Notes under the pieces: generated by a model
Database searches by the model: none
Seen by the model: the letters and a program-made list of their open reading frames with translations, nothing else
What the model was told of the DNA's origin: nothing
Translations under genes and position numbers: made by a program
In this document: piece by piece, positions 1 to 17,329 of the stretch
How positions within the stretch are numbered: position 1 is the stretch's first letter
Layout of the letters: every line of letters begins with the position of its first letter
Virus record (IMG/VR): IMGVR_UViG_2639763139_000009
Strand: one strand, 5' to 3'
Origin: a virus
Lineage: Duplodnaviria; Heunggongvirae; Uroviricota; Caudoviricetes
Length of the DNA: 17,329 bases

Positions 1-303
1 TTAACGCGTATTTTTCAGCGACTCCTGTGCAAAATACGCTGTTGCTTTTTTTAATATATCTCGCTCAAGGCGAGCTTCATTTAACGCCTTACGCAGTTGC
101 AGAATTTCAGATTCCAGTTCAGCCACCGTGCGGGAACCAGGAGTACCGAGCCCTTTTCTGGCGGCGGTAACCCATTGTCCTAAAGTGCCTTCAGGAAGGG
201 ATAATCGGGAAGCGCCTTCACTGATCGAAAGTTGATTTTCAAGAACCGTTCTGACAGCTTCGGCTTTGAACTCTTTAGAGTAACGTTGGGTTTTTCTGCT
301 CAT
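1..303 (-). CDS. IS600 orfA (transposase N-terminal HTH protein)
   Basis: 100-aa ORF (MSRKTQRYSKEFKAEAVR...) with an HTH and a leucine-zipper-like C-terminus typical of IS3-family OrfA. An A7G slippery motif lies at its 3' end (seen in copy 2 at 13492-13499). Confidence 0.85.
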   Translation of the reverse strand: MSRKTQRYSKEFKAEAVRTVLENQLSISEGASRLSLPEGTLGQWVTAARKGLGTPGSRTVAELESEILQLRKALNEARLERDILKKATAYFAQESLKNTR

Positions 304-830: not shown

Positions 831-1736
831 CTATATTTCCAGACATCTGTTATCACTTAACCCATTACAAGCCCGCTGCCGCAGATATTCCCGTGGCGAG
901 CGATAACCCAGCGCACTATGCGGATGCCATTCGTTATAATGCTCGAACGCCTCTGCAAGGTTCTTTGCTGCCGTTAACCCGTCTGGTTTGGGCATGATAC
1001 TGATGTAGTCACGCTTTATCGTTTTCACGAAGCTCTCTGCTATTCCGTTACTCTCCGGACTCCGCACCGCCGTGTTCTTCGGTTCAAGTCCCAACATCCG
1101 GGCGAACTGGCGTGTTTCATTAGCCCGGTAGCATGAACCATTATCCGTCAGCCACTCCACTGGAGACGACGGAAGATCGTTGCCGAAGCGGCGTTCCACC
1201 GCTCCCAGCATGACGTCCTGTACTGTTTCACTGTTGAAGCCGCCGGTAGTCACCGCCCAGTGCAGTGCCTCACGATCACAGCAGTCCAGCGCGAACGTGA
1301 CACGCAGTCTCTCTCCGTTATCACAGCAGAACTCGAACCCGTCAGAGCACCATCGCTGATTGCTTTCTTTCACGGCCACTCTGCCTGTATGTGCCCGTTT
1401 CGATGGCGGTACAGCAGGTTTTCGCTCAAGCAACAGCGCATTCTGGCGCATGAGCCGGTAAACACGTTTGGCATTGATCGCAGGCATACCATCAAGTTCT
1501 GCCTGTCTGCGAAGCAGCGCCCATACCCGACGATAACCATACGTGGGCAGCTCTCCGATAACATGGTGTATACGGAGAAGCACATCCGTATCATCAGTGT
1601 GACGACTGCGGCGGCCATCCATCCAGTCATCGGTTCGTCTGAGAATGACGTGCAACTGCGCACGCGACACCCGGAGACAACGGCTGACTAAGCTTACTCC
1701 CCATCCCCGGGCAATAAGGGCGCGTGCGCTATCCAC
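831..1736 (-). CDS. insD: IS2 OrfB (InsD) transposase, DDE catalytic domain
   Basis: 301-aa [41 protein letters not shown]... recognised as IS2 InsD. Overlaps insC as expected for frameshift-coupled IS3-family transposases. Confidence 0.9.
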
Positions 1737-2059
1737 TTTTTTGCCCGTCCATATTCAACGGCTTCTTTGAGGAGTTCATTTTCCATCGTTTTCTTGCCGA
1801 GCAGGCGCTGGAGTTCTTTAATCTGCTTCATGGCGGCAGCAAGTTCAGAGGCAGGAACAACCTGTTCTCCGGCGGCCACAGCAGTAAGACTTCCTTCCTG
1901 GTATTGCTTACGCCAGAGAAATAACTGGCTGGCTGCTACACCATGTTGCCGGGCAACGAGGGAGACCGTCATCCCCGGTTCAAAGCTCTGCTGAACAATT
2001 GCGATCTTTTCCTGTGTGGTACGCCGTCTGCGTTTCTCCGGCCCTAAGACATCAATCAT
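1694..2059 (-). CDS. insC: IS2 OrfA (InsC)
   Basis: Protein [56 protein letters not shown]... is recognised as IS2 InsC. The ORF-track start at 2104 is an upstream extension. Confidence 0.9.
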
Positions 2060-2897
2060 CTGTTCTCCAATGACTAGTCTAAAAACTAGTATTAAGACTA
2101 TCACTTAAATAAGTGATACTGGTTGTCTGGAGATTCAGGGGGCCAGTCTAGATGCCAACACAAAGGCAACTAATAAAGATACAGATAAAGATCTAAAAAC
2201 AGATCTAACCCATCCCAAACCCTTCCCTTCCGGAAGGGAGTTTCGGGATTTTGTGGCTGGAGTGCTTGAGGGGAGATTATCTGGCGGTACTGCAGCGGAA
2301 TTTTGTAATTCTGCGGTGGTTGCGTTGCAGGCTGCTGGCCTGGATGTCTGTCGTGAGTATCCGGTGCCAGAGCGTGGTGACGGTTGCGGAGGGCGGATTG
2401 ATATCGTCGTGACTGACAGGAACGGTGTCCGGTGTGGGATCGAGCTTGACCGAAATTCTCCGCGACAGAAATCACTGCTCAAAATCGGTGCTGTTGAAAC
2501 CGGGATATGTGTCTTGCGGCGCAGTGATATCGCAAGGCACACCGAGCAGGGAATTCTGGTTATCGGTGGGGCTGTTCGCCAGAAAAAATTTGACCCGTTG
2601 TCAGTTGATCTGCCCGACTGGTTGCCAGAAACACTCTGGCATGAGTGGGTCCAGTTCAGGCAGGCATTGCGAAAACCGATTCGAACGGAGCTGGGCGCTA
2701 ACGGGGCGATACGGGAACTGGAAAAATTCCGTCAGCAGGGTTTTACACCTGAGCAGGTGATTCGACACAGCATCGCCAATGAATACCAGGGTCTGTTCGC
2801 GCCGAAAGGTGTTCGGCCTGAGACGTTGCTCCGACAGGTTAACACCGTCTCGTTGCCGGACAGTGCGATCCCGCCAGGCTTCAGGGGGTAACAGACC

Positions 2898-7298: not shown

Positions 7299-7315
7299 TA
7301 GGTAATGACTCCAAC

Positions 7316-7819
7316 TTACTGATAGTGTTTTATGTTCAGATAATGCCCGATGACCTTGTCATGCAGCTCCACCGATTTTGAGAACGACAGTGACTTCCGT
7401 CCCAGCCTTGCCAGATGTTGTCTCAGATTCAGATTATGTCGCTCAATGCGCTGAGTGTAACGCTTGCTGATAACGTGCAGCTTTCCCTTCAGGCGTGATT
7501 CATACAGCGGCCAGCCATCCGTCATCCATACCACGACCTCAAAGGCCGACAGCAGGCTCAGAAGACGCTCCAGTGTGGCCAGAGTGCGTTCACCGAAGAC
7601 GTGCGCCACAACCGTCCTCCGTATCCTGTCATACGCGTAAAACAGCCAGCGCTGACGTGATTTAGCACCGACGTAGCCCCAATGTTCGTCCATTTCAGCG
7701 CAGACAATCACATCACTGCCCGGTTGTATGCGCGAGGTTACCGACTGCGGCCTGAGTTTTTTAAGTGACGTAAAACCGTGTTGAGGCCAACGCCCATAAT
7801 GCGTGCACTGGCGCGACAT
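7316..7819 (-). CDS. insB: IS1 InsB (transposase expressed as InsAB fusion by frameshift)
   Basis: 167-aa ORF overlapping the insA 3' end, typical IS1 organisation. Confidence 0.93.
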
Positions 7820-8013
7820 CCGACGCCATTCATGGCCATATCAATGATTTTCTGGTGCGTACCGGGCTGAGAGGCGGTGTAAGTGAACTGTAGTTGCCAT
7901 GTTTTACGGCAATGAGAGCAGAGATAGCGCTGATGTCCGGCAGTGCTTTTGCCGTTACGCACCACGCCTTCAGTAGCGGAGCAGGAAGGACATCTGATGG
8001 AAATGGAAGCCAC
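7738..8013 (-). CDS. insA: IS1 InsA
   Basis: 91-aa zinc-finger protein [40 protein letters not shown]... Confidence 0.93.
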
Positions 8014-8146
8014 GCAAGCACCTTAAAATCACCATCATACACTAAATCAGTAAGTTGGCAGCATTACCCTGTTAGTATTGGCATTAATTCTGGTATACTA
8101 CATAACGGGCTGAACACCCATTCTACTGCGCCAGCGGAGAACTACG

Positions 8147-9776: not shown

Positions 9777-9853
9777 GGCCCTTTAGCTCAGTTGGTCAGA
9801 GCGAGCGACTCATAATCGCCAGGTCGCTGGTTCAAGTCCAGCAAGGGCCACCA
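9777..9853 (+). tRNA. tRNA with anticodon CAU, ileX/ileZ-like (tRNA-Ile2 if lysidine-modified, otherwise Met)
   Basis: Manual cloverleaf: acceptor ggccctt/aagggcc, D-arm gctc/gagc, anticodon loop ctCATaa, T-loop ttcaagt, encoded CCA. Confidence 0.85.
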
Positions 9854-9854
9854 A

Positions 9855-9931
9855 CCACCACTAGCTCATCCGGATAGAGCATCAACCTTCTAAGTTGACG
9901 GTGCGAGGTTCGAGTCCTCGGTGGTGGGCCA
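9855..9931 (+). tRNA. tRNA-Arg (anticodon UCU)
   Basis: Acceptor ccaccac/gtggtgg, anticodon stem tcaac/gttga with loop ctTCTaa, T-arm cgagg-ttcgagt-cctcg, encoded CCA. Confidence 0.85.
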
Positions 9932-9933
9932 GC

Positions 9934-10009
<76 letters not shown>

Positions 10010-10012
10010 TAT

Positions 10013-10087
<75 letters not shown>

Positions 10088-10201
10088 TGACCTTTCTTAA
10101 AGTACTCCAACCTACTGAATCCTAAGGGATACGGCTTTAAGCCTCCTTGCAGAGTTACTTACTGTAACCCACTGTGTAACCCTCTCAGGGCATACAGACA
10201 T

Positions 10202-11806
10202 ATGATTCAGCTATCCAGTAGTCACAAACTTCCAGCAGTCTACTATCTCTACCAGCGTAACGGCGTCTACTACTTCCGTCTTAGGGTCAGACAATCAAAC
10301 AATGATAGAATGACCTCAATATCATTACGGACCAAGGATAGACGCACCGCTATGGCTTACTCAAGGCACATAAAGGCAGCACTCAAGGCAATACACGCAG
10401 ACAGACCCAACGCTACCTATGAGGAAATGAGGGAACACCTTAAGGACATCGCTGAGTGTGAACTGTCTATGGGCCGTTCAGATCTCTTTGAGCCTGACAT
10501 GAGGGATATCTACCGGGACCAATACGGAGAACTTGGTGAGAGCCTTACCGATGCTCTGGCTAGTGAGCCGCTAAGCATTGACCAGCATCGTTACATCAAT
10601 GAGGCCCTGAAGGTGCTAAAAGCCTGTATGAGGCGTATCGAAGCGGGAGACAGTCAGCCTCTGATAGATTACGTCGATCTTTTTAATGATATTGATAGGC
10701 AAGATAACCAAGCAGACTCTGTGTCCCTATCTGTTAATGCTCCAGAAGTAAAACCAGAAGTTACGCCTAGCATTACCATAGCGAGCCTCTTTGAGCAATA
10801 CGAAGCGGAGAACTATCAGAACTGGAAGCCTGCAACCTTAAGGGAAAACAAGGCGTCACACGCTGCGTTAATCGAAATATTCGACCATCTGGGTCTCAAT
10901 GCAGACGCTAACAGGGCTGACATGCTTAGGGTCCGTGATGTGCTCCAGCAGTTACCTAGGAACCGTAAGCAGCGCTTCAAGGATGTCCCACTTGCTGACC
11001 TGTTGAGCCGTGAAGATAAGACAGATTGTCTGGATGTCGTTACCATCAACAACAAGTATCTTATTAAGATGGCTGCTGTCTTTAGGTGGGCTGTGCGCAA
11101 TGACTTGATTAAAAAGAACATGACTGAGGGTCTGGAGCTTAAAGTCCCTCAGCGTAAAGCCTCAGGGGCCCGTAACGCCTTCTCTACGGAGCAGGTGGGG
11201 CAACTACTGGTCGCAGCTAAGGCATACTCTCAGAAGACCTCTGGTAAGCCGTATCATTATTATGTTACCGCCTTGGCTGCTATCACTGGGGCGAGACTCA
11301 ATGAAATAGCCCAACTACAGGTCAAAGACGTCAGGACCACTGAGGCGGGAACCGTTTATATTCATATCAATGAAGACGATAGTAGTCTACCCGGTAAGAG
11401 CATCAAGAACGCTCATAGTGACCGCTGTGTGCCTCTGGTCGATGGGGCCTATGGTTTTATATTGGCTGACTTTATGGCGCTTGTAGAGACCCGTAGAGGC
11501 GCTGACGGTGATGACGCTATGGTGTTCGATGGTCTGCGTCTCATGAAGAACGGTTACGGTGAGCAGGTGAGTAAATGGTTTAATCGGACGTTGTTGCCTA
11601 AAGTCCTCGTAGACCGTAGCGGCTTAGCGTTTCACTCGTTTAGACATACAGTTGCGACCCAGTTAAAACAACATGGGGTCGAGTTGGCGTATGCACAGGC
11701 GATCATGGGGCATAGTTCAGGGTCTATTACTTACGACCGTTATGCTAAAGAGGTCGAGGTTGATAGGCTGGTCAATGTGATGGCTGATGTTTATAAGGAG
11801 ACCTAG
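10202..11806 (+). CDS. int: tyrosine site-specific integrase (534 aa, large form with extended central region)
   Basis: N-terminal arm-type motif VYYFRLRV. Catalytic-domain motifs TGARLNEIAQL, HSFRHTVATQL and the C-terminal ITYDRYAKE tyrosine. Starts 115 bp after the tRNA-Gly. Confidence 0.85.
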   Translation: MIQLSSSHKLPAVYYLYQRNGVYYFRLRVRQSNNDRMTSISLRTKDRRTAMAYSRHIKAALKAIHADRPNATYEEMREHLKDIAECELSMGRSDLFEPDMRDIYRDQYGELGESLTDALASEPLSIDQHRYINEALKVLKACMRRIEAGDSQPLIDYVDLFNDIDRQDNQADSVSLSVNAPEVKPEVTPSITIASLFEQYEAENYQNWKPATLRENKASHAALIEIFDHLGLNADANRADMLRVRDVLQQLPRNRKQRFKDVPLADLLSREDKTDCLDVVTINNKYLIKMAAVFRWAVRNDLIKKNMTEGLELKVPQRKASGARNAFSTEQVGQLLVAAKAYSQKTSGKPYHYYVTALAAITGARLNEIAQLQVKDVRTTEAGTVYIHINEDDSSLPGKSIKNAHSDRCVPLVDGAYGFILADFMALVETRRGADGDDAMVFDGLRLMKNGYGEQVSKWFNRTLLPKVLVDRSGLAFHSFRHTVATQLKQHGVELAYAQAIMGHSSGSITYDRYAKEVEVDRLVNVMADVYKET

Positions 11807-12250: not shown

Positions 12251-12350
12251 CCTATAGGTCTTTTCTAGGGTCTCTCTATAGGTCTTCTCTATGGTCCTCT
12301 ATGGTCCTCTATGGTCCTCTATGGTCCTCTATGGTCCTCTATGGCCCTGT
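12251..12350. repeat. tandem direct repeats: 5 perfect copies of atggtcctct (12291-12340) flanked by degenerate copies
   Basis: Seen directly. Upstream degenerate units ctataggtctt(t/c)tct and downstream atggccctgt. Confidence 0.9.
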
Positions 12351-12567: not shown

Positions 12568-12723
12568 ATGTCTCAACAACCACAACAACCACAACAAGAA
12601 ATCAGCATCATTAACCTCGACCAGCTTGTGTCCATGACCTCAGTTGAAATTGCTGAGCTGACAGGCAAGGAGCACCGAAATGTCCTTCGTGATATTCGTA
12701 AGATGCTCGAAGAACTTAACGCG
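12568..12723 (+). pseudogene. Rha-like phage regulatory protein gene, N-terminal 52 codons only, truncated by IS1
   Basis: MSQQPQQPQQEISIINLDQLVSMTSVEIAELTGKEHRNVLRDIRKMLEEL resembles the Phage_pRha N-terminal motif (..EIAELTGK.H..V.RDIR..) as recalled. The reading frame runs into the IS1 end at 12724. RBS aaggaaa. Confidence 0.5.
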
Positions 12724-12778
12724 GGTAATGCTGCCAACTTACTGATTTAGTGTATGATGGTGATTTTAAGGTGCTTGC

Positions 12779-13054
12779 GTGGCTTCCATTTCCATCAGAT
12801 GTCCTTCCTGCTCCGCTACTGAAGGCGTGGTGCGTAACGGCAAAAGCACTGCCGGACATCAGCGCTATCTCTGCTCTCATTGCCGTAAAACATGGCAACT
12901 ACAGTTCACTTACACCGCCTCTCAGCCCGGTACGCACCAGAAAATCATTGATATGGCCATGAATGGCGTCGGATGTCGCGCCAGTGCACGCATTATGGGC
13001 GTTGGCCTCAACACGGTTTTACGTCACTTAAAAAACTCAGGCCGCAGTCGGTAA
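12779..13054 (+). CDS. insA: IS1 InsA
   Basis: Protein identical to the InsA of the first IS1 copy. Confidence 0.93.
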
Positions 13055-13476
13055 CCTCGCGCATACAACCGGGCAGTGATGTGATTGTCTGCGCTGAAAT
13101 GGACGAACATTGGGGCTACGTCGGTGCTAAATCACGTCAGCGCTGGCTGTTTTACGCGTATGACAGGATACGGAGGACGGTTGTGGCGCACGTCTTCGGT
13201 GAACGCACTCTGGCCACACTGGAGCGTCTTCTGAGCCTGCTGTCGGCCTTTGAGGTCGTGGTATGGATGACGGATGGCTGGCCGCTGTATGAATCACGCC
13301 TGAAGGGAAAGCTGCACGTTATCAGCAAGCGTTACACTCAGCGCATTGAGCGACATAATCTGAATCTGAGACAACATCTGGCAAGGCTGGGACGGAAGTC
13401 ACTGTCGTTCTCAAAATCGGTGGAGCTGCATGACAAGGTCATCGGGCATTATCTGAACATAAAACACTATCAGTAA
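12973..13476 (+). CDS. insB: IS1 InsB
   Basis: Protein identical to the InsB of the first IS1 copy. Confidence 0.93.
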
Positions 13477-13491
13477 GTTGGAGTCATTACC

Positions 13492-14440
13492 AAAAAAAGC
13501 AACAGCGTATTTTGCACAGGAGTCGCTGAAAAATACGCGTTAATCGAACAATGGCGACAACAATTTCCCATTGAAGCGATGTGTCAGGTATTTGGTGTAT
13601 CCAGGAGCGGTTATTACAACTGGGTACAGCATGAACCCTCAGACAGAAAACAAAGTGATGAGCGGCTAAAACTGGAGATTAAGGTGGCACATATCCGCAC
13701 TCGCGAAACATATGGAACCCGGCGGCTCCAGACGGAGCTGGCAGAGAATGGCATCATCGTTGGTCGTGACCGACTGGCACGTCTTCGTAAGGAGCTGAGG
13801 CTACGCTGTAAGCAGAAACGCAAGTTCAGAGCGACTACGAACCCGAACCACAATCTGCCAGTTGCGCCAAATCTGCTGAACCAGACGTTCGCTCCTACAG
13901 CACCAAATCAGGTCTGGGTGGCGGACCTGACGTATGTTGCCACACAGGAGGGATGGTTGTACCTCGCTGGCATCAAAGATGTTTATACGTGCGAAATTGT
14001 CGGCTACGCCATGGGAGAGCGCATGACAAAAGAGCTGACAGGTAAAGCCCTGTTTATGGCGCTCAGGAGCCAGCGCCCACCTGCCGGGCTAATCCACCAC
14101 TCTGATCGAGGTTCACAGTACTGCGCATACGATTACCGGGTCATACAGGAGCAGTCTGGTCTGAAAACATCAATGTCGCGTAAAGGTAACTGTTACGACA
14201 ACGCTCCGATGGAAAGCTTCTGGGGAACGCTGAAAAATGAGAGCCTGAGCCACTATCGTTTTAATAACCGGGATGAAGCCATCTCAGTAATACGGGAATA
14301 CATTGAGATTTTCTACAATCGTCAGCGTCGTCACTCTCGTCTGGGGAATATCTCCCCGGCAGCCTTCAGGGAAAAATATCATCAGATGGCTGCTTAAAAA
14401 AAGAACAAATGGTAGTGTCCGCTATTGCCAGTACACCTCA
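13492..14440 (+). mobile_element. IS600, 5'-truncated copy (lacks the left IR and most of orfA), right IR ending ...gtacacctca at 14440
   Basis: 13492..13543 equals the reverse complement of window 1..52. orfB follows. The terminus resembles the IS600 left IR in inverted form (tgaggt...cggacact). Confidence 0.9.
13579..14397 (+). CDS. IS600 OrfB transposase (DDE integrase core)
   Basis: 272-aa ORF with the IS3-family DDE region (WVADLTY...HSDRGSQY...ESFWGTLKNE). Normally expressed as an OrfAB fusion by -1 frameshift at the A7G motif at 13492-13499. Confidence 0.9.
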   Translation: MCQVFGVSRSGYYNWVQHEPSDRKQSDERLKLEIKVAHIRTRETYGTRRLQTELAENGIIVGRDRLARLRKELRLRCKQKRKFRATTNPNHNLPVAPNLLNQTFAPTAPNQVWVADLTYVATQEGWLYLAGIKDVYTCEIVGYAMGERMTKELTGKALFMALRSQRPPAGLIHHSDRGSQYCAYDYRVIQEQSGLKTSMSRKGNCYDNAPMESFWGTLKNESLSHYRFNNRDEAISVIREYIEIFYNRQRRHSRLGNISPAAFREKYHQMAA

Positions 14441-14543
14441 GTTAATCCAATATCTCCCCGGCAGCCTTCAGGGAAAAATATCATCAGATGGCTGCTTAAA
14501 AAAAGAACAAATGGTAGTGTCCGCTATTGCCAGTACACCTCAG
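14347..14543 (+). repeat. tandem duplication (two ~95-bp copies, offset 102 bp) of the IS600 3' end, including the orfB 3' codons and the right inverted repeat
   Basis: Identical 93-nt block atctccccggcagcc...gccagtacacctcagt at 14350-14442 and 14452-14544; each copy is followed by a near-identical short flank (gttaatcca vs gtaatcca). Confidence 0.9.
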
Positions 14544-14895
14544 TAATCCATCCAGGCCTGTTGTTGCAGAGCTTGGCGATGATTCAGGCTGGCATTTTTT
14601 CAGCCAGAGAAACCCGGATAACAGCATAGTGTTCACTGTTAACGGACAGGTAATTCCGTTAAATTACGGAAACTTCGATGCCCGCTATAAATATCGAACA
14701 GAGGGGGTACAGGATGTACGGTATGGCCATGAAATGTATTACAGCCCCGGCAGTAACACCGTTTCGTGGAGATTTTGCGCACCTTCGGGACACGGGCTGT
14801 CAGGGATGGCGATATCGGATACCGGCCGTAACTCAGCGGATAACGTTGACGGTGTGTATTACCGACCACTGCAAAAACTGATTAATGGCACCTAG
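14543..14895 (+). pseudogene. side tail fibre protein, C-terminal fragment only (N-terminus removed at the IS600 boundary)
   Basis: RPVVAELGDDSGWHFFSQRNPDNSIVFTVNGQ...YRPLQKLINGT matches the conserved C-terminus of P2 gpH / lambda Stf-type fibres as recalled. The reading frame is open back into the IS600 end with no native start. Confidence 0.7.
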
Positions 14896-14918: not shown

Positions 14919-15463
14919 ATGTTGCATTTAAAAAATATTACTACGGGTAATCCGAAAACAGCAGAACAATATCAGATGACAAAACGATATTCGGTCACCT
15001 GGCTTTTTTCAGAAGACGGAAAAAACTGGTATGAAGAGCTGAAGAATTTCGCCAGGACACAATTAAAATAACTTACACCGGAGACGGTCGCGTGGTGTGG
15101 GTCGGTAAGGATGTGACAGGCATTGAACCCCGTAACGCCAGTGTTATTGAAGTTCCTGATATTACCGCCAACCGCCGCATTACCGCGCCGGGTTACTGGT
15201 TTTACCGCAATGATGAATTTGTCTTTGACTACAGACTCAAAGCGGAAGATGAGCGTGATGCCCTTCTGGCTCAGGTCAGTGCCCGGACAGGGGAATGGGA
15301 AGAAGACCTGCTGCTGGGGTTAATCAGCGACGAAGATAAAGAAAAGCTGAAAGCCTGTCGTATTTACGCGAAATCGCTGCAGGCGATGGATTTCAGCACC
15401 ATCACTGATAAATCCTCATACAACGCCATTGAATGGCCCGCCTCTCCGGAAGGTTCTTCCTGA
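14919..15463 (+). pseudogene. tail fibre assembly protein (Tfa) gene with a frameshift near 15050
   Basis: N-terminal part [19 protein letters not shown]...WYEELKNF is in frame 0 and stops at 15069-15071. The remainder ([21 protein letters not shown]... to IEWPASPEGSS, Tfa-like C-terminus) is in frame 2. Both halves match a single Tfa protein as recalled. Confidence 0.65.
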
Positions 15464-15486: not shown

Positions 15487-16755
15487 ATGTCTGTAGTGAT
15501 ATCAGGTGCGCTGACTGATGGCGCAGGTATCCCCATGTCCGGATACCATATTATTCTGAAATCCCGGGTAAACACCCCGGAAGTGGTGATGAACACTGTT
15601 GCTGATGTGATGACAGGAAACGATGGTGAATACTGTTTCCATGCGCGGACTGGAAAATATGGTGTGTATCTGAAACAGGACTGGCGCAACGAGTACAACG
15701 TTGGCGACATTGCTGTATATGAGGACTCAAAGCCCGGCACGCTGAATGACTTTCTGATTGCTCCTGATGAGGGCGACCTGAAACCGGATGTCGTCAAACG
15801 CTTTGAGGAAATGGTGGCGCAGGCGCAGCAGAGCGCCGGGGCCGCAGCCGGAAACGCACAGCAGACGGCGCAGGATGTGGCGGCAGCCGCAGGTTATGCC
15901 CGCGCAGCAGAGCAGGCCAAAAATGACATTGATGCTGCGCTGACCGGCACTCTGAAAATGGCTAACCATCTGTCAGAAATCGCAGCAGCAGGCGAAAAGG
16001 CACAACAGAAGTCCCGGGATAATCTGGGGCTGAAAAGTGCGGCCACGATGGAAGCACAGAGCGACATTTACGACCGGACAAAAGGCCGTCTGGCGATACC
16101 CGGCGCATTCGGCTTTGGGTGTGCTTTTCTGCCTGAAGATGTTATCCGTTTTGACACTAAGAGTGATTTCCTGGCCTGGGTAAGGAATGCGCTGCCAGGT
16201 GAATATTCCGTTGCTGGCCCTTACGGCATCATCATACCCGACACACGGTTTGAAGGGGTGCTCAGCATCCGGTGGACTGATGCACGCCCTGAGACAACAG
16301 AACCGCGGTACAGAGCCAAATCCCTTACTTTTTACGGCATTAACGGCCCCATTTATCACACCCGCTACTGCTACTGGCCCATATCCAGACTGACTGGCTG
16401 GGTGAAAATAAATATAACCACAGAAGATATTATTTACAGAATCGTGGCGAGCTCTGTCCGCAACAGATGGGGAGACCCTGACATTGGCGGGCTGATTATT
16501 GCTGCGTACCAGGGAGAAGCTGACGGTGATAAAGTCATCAGACTTGTCAGGGGGCAGTCATACAGAGGCTCACGACTGGGACCGGTGGGGATTTCAGTGC
16601 CCAGTACTCCCACCGGAACGTATATAGTATCCCCACAATTTTTCATAACGGGATGTTCAGAGCATTCATTACCGGGGTCATATTGCGCCCTGTCCGGGGT
16701 GCCGGATGCACATGTCTCTGGCGCAATGCCCGGGCTTTTTATTCGCACATCGTGA
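15487..16755 (+). CDS. side tail fibre protein (Stf-like, 422 aa)
   Basis: N-terminus MSVVISGALTDGAGIP...VYEDSKPGTLNDFL closely parallels the lambda Stf N-terminus (MAVKISGVLKDGTGKP...VYEDSQPGTLNDFL) as recalled. An Ala/Gln-rich stalk follows, then a distinct C-terminal domain. Confidence 0.8.
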   Translation: MSVVISGALTDGAGIPMSGYHIILKSRVNTPEVVMNTVADVMTGNDGEYCFHARTGKYGVYLKQDWRNEYNVGDIAVYEDSKPGTLNDFLIAPDEGDLKPDVVKRFEEMVAQAQQSAGAAAGNAQQTAQDVAAAAGYARAAEQAKNDIDAALTGTLKMANHLSEIAAAGEKAQQKSRDNLGLKSAATMEAQSDIYDRTKGRLAIPGAFGFGCAFLPEDVIRFDTKSDFLAWVRNALPGEYSVAGPYGIIIPDTRFEGVLSIRWTDARPETTEPRYRAKSLTFYGINGPIYHTRYCYWPISRLTGWVKINITTEDIIYRIVASSVRNRWGDPDIGGLIIAAYQGEADGDKVIRLVRGQSYRGSRLGPVGISVPSTPTGTYIVSPQFFITGCSEHSLPGSYCALSGVPDAHVSGAMPGLFIRTS

Positions 16756-16765
16756 GGAATGCACC

Positions 16766-17329
16766 GTGGAAATTAAAAAAATCATTAATCCCCGTTATAC
16801 CGAAAGTGGCGCAGTAGACTGTGACGTTTTTTTTGACGACAGGGACCAGGCAGTTCCCTACACAGCCACCGCTGATGATGTCGCACCGACGGGTCAGCAA
16901 ATCTGGCAGGAACTGCAAAGTGGCAAATGGGGTGAGATAGCCCCATTCACTGTGACACCAGAAATGCTGGAAGCGGCCAGAGAGGCCAGACGTCAGGAAA
17001 TTGAAGCATGGCGCGCAGAACAGGAGGCGAAGCCGTTCACGTTTGAATGGAACGGTCGTATCTGGAATGCTGGCCCCGACTCACTGGGCCGCCTGTCCCC
17101 GGTAGTCATGCTGGCAAAATCTGTCACAGCACAAACACATATGGCGTGGAGCGATGCCGATAATCAGCAGGTGAAACTGTCGATGCCGGAACTGGAAGAA
17201 CTGGCGGCAGCAATGGTGCAGGCGCAGGTCGATCGCAACGATGAGATTTATCGCCGTCAGCGGGAGCTGAAGGAAGAGCTGAATAGTCTGAAGGATTTGA
17301 ATTCGGTTAGGAATTTTATCGTGGAATAA
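16766..17329 (+). CDS. putative tail fibre assembly / chaperone protein
   Basis: GTG start 7 nt after tgagga. Lies immediately downstream of the fibre gene. Acidic coiled-coil C-terminus. The stop codon is the last 3 nt of the window. Confidence 0.5.
   Translation: MEIKKIINPRYTESGAVDCDVFFDDRDQAVPYTATADDVAPTGQQIWQELQSGKWGEIAPFTVTPEMLEAAREARRQEIEAWRAEQEAKPFTFEWNGRIWNAGPDSLGRLSPVVMLAKSVTAQTHMAWSDADNQQVKLSMPELEELAAAMVQAQVDRNDEIYRRQRELKEELNSLKDLNSVRNFIVE

Follow-up and report, generated by a model that had tools for sequence, protein, structure and literature searches.

The window, i.e., the whole stretch of 17,329 nucleotides analyzed here (IMG/VR record IMGVR_UViG_2639763139_000009, assigned to Caudoviricetes), harbors an IS600 copy devoid of its 5' part, which lies between an IS1 copy and the 3' remnant of a prophage tail-fibre gene (Table 1). 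The element was identified as IS600 by its 99.3% identity to copies that RefSeq names "IS3-like element IS600 family transposase", with a programmed frameshift. All IS600 coordinates given below are those of the intact copy found at the same locus in another sequence, L005, which is 1,264 nt long and carries imperfect terminal inverted repeats of 27 nt (TGAGGTAGCC... and ...GTACACCTCA) that start with TG and end with CA; the window copy matches its nt 316-1264. The coding organization is also that of IS600, with a DDE (rve) transposase encoded by orfB, an orfA of 100 aa with an HTH_Tnp_1 domain that is seen in the other IS600 copy at window 1..303, and an A7G frameshift motif, AAAAAAAG, at 13492.

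IS1 sits exactly at this programmed-frameshift motif (13491/13492), with removal of IS600 nt 1-315. Pfam domains Zn_ribbon_InsA and DDE_Tnp_IS1 were detected on the genes called in it. The IS1/IS600 junction is common to many S. flexneri strains, while L005 and others have an intact IS600. As for a target-site duplication, the window copy has lost its left end to the IS1 cut, and the intact copy of L005 is flanked by CAG and GTA, which indicates that the latter is a recombinant IS600 copy. On the other side, homologues of the target gene that carry a tail-fibre protein annotation are uninterrupted in E. coli, including enteroinvasive strains (EIEC), where they read TTTGTGGGGTAATCCATCCAGG. The chimeric ORF of 122 aa that reads from the IS600 end into the remnant was retrieved from about 350 contigs by exact look-up, nearly all of them of S. 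flexneri, and many genomes of this species list it as a hypothetical protein (e.g., AAN42962.1 and ADA73763.1). Neither the truncation by IS1 nor the tail-fibre identity of the flank had been recognized in the original prediction for this DNA, which had also missed that the left boundary of the repeat described below, IS600 nt 1171, recurs elsewhere.

Table 1. Features of the IS600 locus and of a related structure at another locus (window coordinates, unless another sequence is named).
Feature	Position	Strand	Remarks
IS1 truncating IS600 at its 5' side	12723..13491	+	769-nt inverted repeat, 100% identical, with the IS1 at 7301-8069
IS600 without its 5' end (nt 316-1264)	13492..14440	+	left inverted repeat and most of orfA gone; first right inverted repeat present
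orfB	13579..14397	+	272 aa; HTH_21/rve/rve_3/rve_2
Spurious ORF	14303..14629	+	108 aa; contains the 32-residue peptide ISPRQPSGKNIIRWLLKKRTNGSVRYCQYTSV twice
Repeat unit 1	14347..14448	+	IS600 nt 1171-1264 (14347-14440) and 8-nt spacer GTTAATCC (14441-14448)
Repeat unit 2	14449..14542	+	second copy of IS600 nt 1171-1264, with its right inverted repeat; followed by the native target
Chimeric ORF	14527..14895	+	122 aa; TTG start in the second IS600 right end; continues into the remnant of the tail-fibre gene
3' remnant of prophage tail-fibre gene, IS600 target	14543..14895	+	junction with unit 2, CCTCA|GTAATCCATCCAGG, is native
Full IS600 followed by IS600 nt 1171-1264	1884-3241 of L029 (CP182556.1); 1-486 of L030 (CP178302.1)		neighbour: E. 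coli RefSeq Mu transposase C-terminal domain protein

Other features were noted in the surrounding prophage. A DUF1376 phage replication gene (407-2104), intact with 399 aa in two other sequences (L056 and L057), is reduced to 196 aa here and is broken by an IS3-family element on the minus strand, with orfB at 831..1736 and orfA at about 1694..2104; a further minus-strand IS600 copy starts at window 367 and runs past the left edge. Four phage-borne tRNA genes (Met-CAT, Arg-TCT, Thr-TGT, and Gly-TCC; region 9777-11806) follow a homologue of the Q antiterminator, and a gene for a tyrosine integrase of 534 aa (10202..11806) comes directly after this cluster, so that another element may have integrated into the tRNA genes of the prophage. 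Upstream of an ORF with a pRha domain lies a tandem array (12252-12348) of about 8 copies of the 10-nt unit TCTATGGTCC, with flanking repeats of 20-25 nt, which varies in length among strains (33-69 gap positions relative to L008, L010, L013, L027, and L058). The tail-fibre assembly gene at 14919-15463 is split into ORFs of 50 and 123 aa, in comparison with 181 aa for its intact homologues (L001, L002, and L042); the tail module of the prophage is decayed beyond the IS600 insertion.

The 3' end of IS600 is written twice, head to tail. Comparison of the whole window with itself yielded an exact direct repeat of 96 nt, at 14347-14442 and 14449-14544 (100% identity), and Tandem Repeats Finder reported an array at 14347-14550 (period 102, 2.0 copies, 99% matches, score 399), the only one in the window with a period above 25. 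A tandem duplication of the IS600 right terminus had been proposed at the outset; the head-to-tail repeat stands, and the length of 93 nt and the coordinates then given for it are to be replaced by those above. The block does span the last codons of orfB and the right inverted repeat, as had been stated: orfB terminates inside the first copy, and each unit comprises its final 16 codons with the stop codon, plus the right inverted repeat. Exactly two occurrences of the right tip, CTATTGCCAGTACACCTCA, are present in the window, with ends at 14440 and 14542, in keeping with the two adjacent right ends seen earlier; none was found in 200 shuffles. Similarly, the ORF at 14303..14629 does contain the repeated peptide attributed to it, which is a by-product of the duplication; neither this exact ORF nor one of 45 aa that crosses the junction is present in a collection of 15 billion proteins.

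The two units are followed by near-identical short flanks, another point on which the first description was accurate. The proximal junction reads CCTCA|GTTAATCC and leads into copy 2, and the distal copy has the native junction between IS600 and the tail-fibre gene, CCTCA|GTAATCCATCC. Relative to the native flank, GTAATCC, the spacer has one additional T. In effect, about 101 nt are doubled, 94 of IS600 and 7 of flank, and a T is inserted 6 nt before the join. The novel junction can be written CCTCAGTTAATCC|AATATCTCC (full string ACCTCAGTTAATCCAATATCTCCCCGGCAGC; the corresponding string of the native junction is ACCTCAGTAATCCATCCAGGCC). Microhomology at the endpoints is limited to 1 nt, an A, as GGGG|AATATC on the left and AATCC|ATCCAG on the right do not match.

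The two repeat copies are identical. Both have a G at 14389/14491, where most related strains have an A; this position does not discriminate between explanations, since some other strains share the G. For the SNPs internal to IS600 as well, the alleles of the window relative to a pooled IS600 consensus are found in other strains too. A hairpin and an unequal exchange were also considered and discarded. The predicted hairpin at the left boundary (-5 kcal/mol, z = -0.65) folds no better than shuffled sequence and was dropped as a breakpoint determinant. Unequal exchange between two similar 9-mers, AATCCATCC in the flank and AATATCTCC at IS600 nt 1171-1179, predicts a period of 96 nt and a hybrid 9-mer, and what is observed is TAATCC followed by AATATCTCC.

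The duplication is carried by a single assembly. It is found in AMKF01000030.1, a contig of 197,687 nt from a draft whole-genome assembly of S. flexneri (GCA_000815805.1), to which the rare 422-aa tail-fibre allele led. This contig is the source of the window; the two are identical over 4,843 nt, and the repeat is at about positions 189,176-189,379 of the contig. In 17 independent sequences of the locus, a single right end is followed by the native junction, such that the duplication is present in one of 18. These 17 comprise all 13 loci reaching the junction that were retrieved through the 122-aa ORF (L005-L017), three IMG/VR proviruses (L025-L027), and CP000266.1 (L058), which shares the whole arrangement of the window with a single right end; 12 of them are complete chromosomes by our count.

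Searches beyond the locus gave the same picture. Exact scans for the novel junction, with the T allowed to be present or absent, returned nothing from genome_contigs (species representatives), metagenome_contigs, and viral_contigs. By BLAST against 5,426 complete genomes of E. coli, the phage records of GenBank, and the plasmids of PLSDB, no unbroken match to it was obtained; all hits in these three sets were split into two pieces, which corresponded to single IS600 ends of the ordinary kind. In the metagenome and viral collections, no pair of IS600 right tips 70-100 nt apart was detected, and literature searches for duplications of IS600 ends and for the accessions of the assembly gave no result. 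Another IS600 copy or a paralogous tail-fibre gene was considered as the source of the spacer and rejected, as GTTAATCC after an IS600 tip has no occurrence outside of the source contig.

One alternative is a genuine tandem duplication of 101/102 bp, private to this strain. Its origin might be template switching or illegitimate recombination while the DNA was replicated or repaired, with a T inserted near the junction, and it would be a neutral, unstable polymorphism located in a prophage gene that is already dead and in a truncated IS. In bacteria, small tandem duplications with inserted bases at their junctions are known. The sequence runs cleanly and continuously over the repeat, with no Ns, in a contig that is accurate elsewhere, and private events are to be expected in this strain, which represents a distinct lineage with private alleles, e.g., a unique allele of the 422-aa tail-fibre gene. 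However, with microhomology of 1 nt, such an event requires the T as an additional mutation; the boundary hairpin offers no help beyond that of shuffled sequences, and no relative carries the duplication. Its location also weighs against it: of 102-bp duplications placed at random in a Shigella genome, about 1-2% would be expected to straddle an IS boundary by a rough hand estimate (about 600 IS boundaries x 102 nt / 4.5 Mb), and fewer still to start exactly at nt 1171. Taken together, these points make a real private duplication possible, if on the unlikely side. The original prediction had named replication slippage among three potential causes without choosing one, and this part of it is disfavored by the single shared nucleotide and by the additional T, which would also have to be explained.

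The alleles of the strain deserve a comment of their own. Relative to the common S. flexneri alleles, 13 substitutions are found at 15574-17074, in the 422-aa tail-fibre gene and in a gene for a DUF4376 protein of 207 aa. The former allele was found in this assembly only, and the other occurrences of the latter are mostly in prophages of E. coli that adjoin the same ABC-transporter locus. These substitutions may represent a recombinant patch or a deep lineage.

How the source contig was put together bears directly on the status of the repeat. IS600 and IS1 are present in high copy numbers in Shigella, and draft contigs normally stop at their edges. In the 32.4 kb of AMKF01000030.1 that were retrieved (L035 and L031), the sequence passes through at least 6 IS copies with no Ns and terminates inside an IS1, which indicates that repeats were bridged by some gap-closing step. 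In the comparison of about 23 kb of the contig with several complete genomes, the additional T of the spacer is the only 1-nt indel, all others being in-frame polymorphisms of 3 or 6 nt. It follows that the T is part of the event that made the repeat, and not background noise. The doubled segment spans the IS600 tip, a boundary between repeated and unique sequence, and has a sequence anomaly 6 nt from its join.

Other assemblies break near the same place. Seven short-read S. flexneri drafts (L018-L024) all end at positions equivalent to window 14598-14610, 55-68 nt past the IS600 tip. The first 60 nt or so of the tail-fibre remnant may be repeated elsewhere in those genomes, in paralogous tail-fibre genes. 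If this is the case, the whole segment from 13492 to about 14600 would be repeat sequence that an assembler must bridge.

We favor the view that the repeat is an un-merged overlap between contigs, present in the assembly and not in the bacterium, because it lies at a repeat/unique boundary, has 1 nt of microhomology, and is accompanied by the sole 1-nt indel in about 23 kb. This explanation, in which the history of the assembly is deduced from the sequence, is in our estimate the probable one, with ample room for doubt. In this scheme, the region that separates the upstream sequence from the unique tail-fibre sequence would have been rebuilt from two sides. A first piece would have read through IS600 towards the right and continued for 8-9 nt of flank, with a one-base error at its very end that turned GTAATCC into GTTAATCC; a second would have started in the tail-fibre gene and read towards the left, reaching 94 nt into IS600, such that their true overlap would be about 101 nt. 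Because of the terminal error in the first piece, an end-anchored overlap would have gone unrecognized, and the two pieces might then have been abutted instead of merged, with the overlap written twice. False duplications caused by incorrect gap filling and by read errors are on record (PMC9516828), as are contig ends whose indels prevent closure, together with negative gap lengths (PMC2884544), which we read as overlapping contig ends. Among the causes first put forward, an assembly artefact is hence the one that fits best the occurrence in one of 18 locus sequences, in a draft contig, at a repeat/unique boundary and with an indel beside the join.

Two observations count against an artefact. 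The contig is otherwise very clean: in the 32.4 kb retrieved, with about a dozen IS boundaries by our count, there is no second tandem duplication or long-period repeat, at these boundaries or elsewhere. In addition, the left boundary of the repeat, nt 1171, is a genuine breakpoint elsewhere. A generic search for pairs of IS600 right tips at a distance of 70-100 nt identified two complete S. flexneri genomes, SFBU1023 (CP182556.1) and ECMA0423 (CP178302.1), in which, at another locus, a full IS600 is directly followed by IS600 nt 1171-1264 (L029 and L030 in Table 1). The sequence there reads ...CCTCA|AATATCTCC...CCTCA|AACATC, and the structure is real, as its two copies differ by one SNP. It is consistent with one IS600 having inserted into another at AAT (nt 1171-1173, with a target duplication of 3 bp) and the two copies having then recombined, and the recurrence of nt 1171 hints at a self-insertion site of IS600. 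When this abutted type of junction was searched for in plasmids, the hits were again single IS600 ends matched in two pieces, which do not discriminate. The coincidence at nt 1171 is not expected from a random join, unless a second locus creates a branch in the assembly graph of the strain; if the strain also had a locus of the SFBU1023 type, a branch of the graph exactly at nt 1171 would result and would account for the boundary being shared. It could equally be compatible with biology.

Two biological scenarios make use of this shared boundary. In the simpler one, the window would be the product of two separate IS600 insertions, one nested in the other, followed by recombination, as at the locus of SFBU1023 and ECMA0423, which this scheme explains well. 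It predicts that CCTCA is directly followed by AATATC, however, and in the window 8 nt intervene, 7 of which are those of the outer flank. Nested insertion is contradicted by this arrangement, because a 3-bp target duplication cannot make an 8-nt spacer that copies the flank, and we consider it very improbable.

In the second scenario, the IS600 transposase, supplied by other IS600 copies, would have cleaved the orphan right end at a CA located 8 nt outside the tip (GTAATCCA) and joined it to nt 1171/1172 of the sister copy, and replication of the branched product would have left a tandem repeat from nt 1171 through the flank. Several features are in line with such an event. The left boundary is that of L029 and L030, in which CCTCA abuts AAT ATCTCC as predicted from a 3-bp AAT target duplication; the duplicated flank terminates in CA; the tail-fibre target, TGTGGGG|TAATCC, resembles IS600 nt 1164-1176, TCTGGGG|AATATC; and an element without a left inverted repeat could undergo one-ended events only. 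If this reading were true, decapitated copies of IS3-family elements would still perform one-ended reactions that build local tandem repeats, and IS600 would have an internal insertion hot spot at nt 1171/1172. Nevertheless, the cleavage would have to be imprecise, 8 nt beyond the end, an activity that we do not know from any IS3-family element, and the additional T is still not accounted for. No pseudo-inverted-repeat was seen at the site by eye, the reciprocal junction was searched for and not found, the other IS600 flanks examined show no preference for TGGGG, and there is one instance in one draft assembly. Aberrant transposition, the remaining cause suggested initially, is disfavored because end cleavage and joining by an IS3-family element would not carry along flanking sequence, and 7 of the 8 spacer bases copy the target flank. 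We regard a transposase-mediated origin as improbable.

The doubled IS600 end is thus probably not a real feature of the bacterium; were it real, it would amount to a neutral duplication, private to one strain, in dead DNA. Should the un-merged overlap be the correct explanation, the actual sequence is the single-copy version of all other strains, and the repeat has no biological function. Either way it carries little biological weight, as it concerns a truncated, immobile IS600 inside a degraded prophage tail-fibre gene. Its practical bearing is that AMKF01000030.1 probably contains a 102-nt false duplication that makes a spurious repeated ORF, and it is unfit as evidence of unusual IS600 behavior.

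The transposition intermediates of IS3-family elements such as IS911, IS2, and IS3, i.e., figure-eight, circle, and tandem (IS)2 dimer forms, have junctions made of a right end, 3 bp, and a left end. They resemble the window in that an IS end is placed beside IS sequence. However, they join the right end to the left end over about 3 bp, whereas the junction here consists of the right tip, the 8 nt of flank in GTTAATCC, and an internal position, IS600 nt 1171, with no left end involved. The structure of SFBU1023 and ECMA0423 is alike in having two right ends in direct orientation and a partial copy that starts from exactly nt 1171 (AATATCTCC). It has no flank between the copies, a period of 94, one SNP and a presence in two complete genomes, in contrast with the flank copy of 8 nt, the identical units, the period of 102 and the single draft contig of the window. 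Duplications that arise spontaneously by slippage or template switching share with the window identical copies of about 100 bp arranged head to tail, but they usually have several nt of microhomology at their endpoints, where the window has a single shared A and an inserted T. Finally, false duplications caused by un-merged contig ends or misfilled gaps (PMC9516828; PMC2884544) differ from the present case in that no sibling artefacts accompany it within 32 kb, and they match it in their location at a boundary, their restriction to a single assembly, the identity of their copies, the presence of an error beside the join, and their formation with no need for microhomology.
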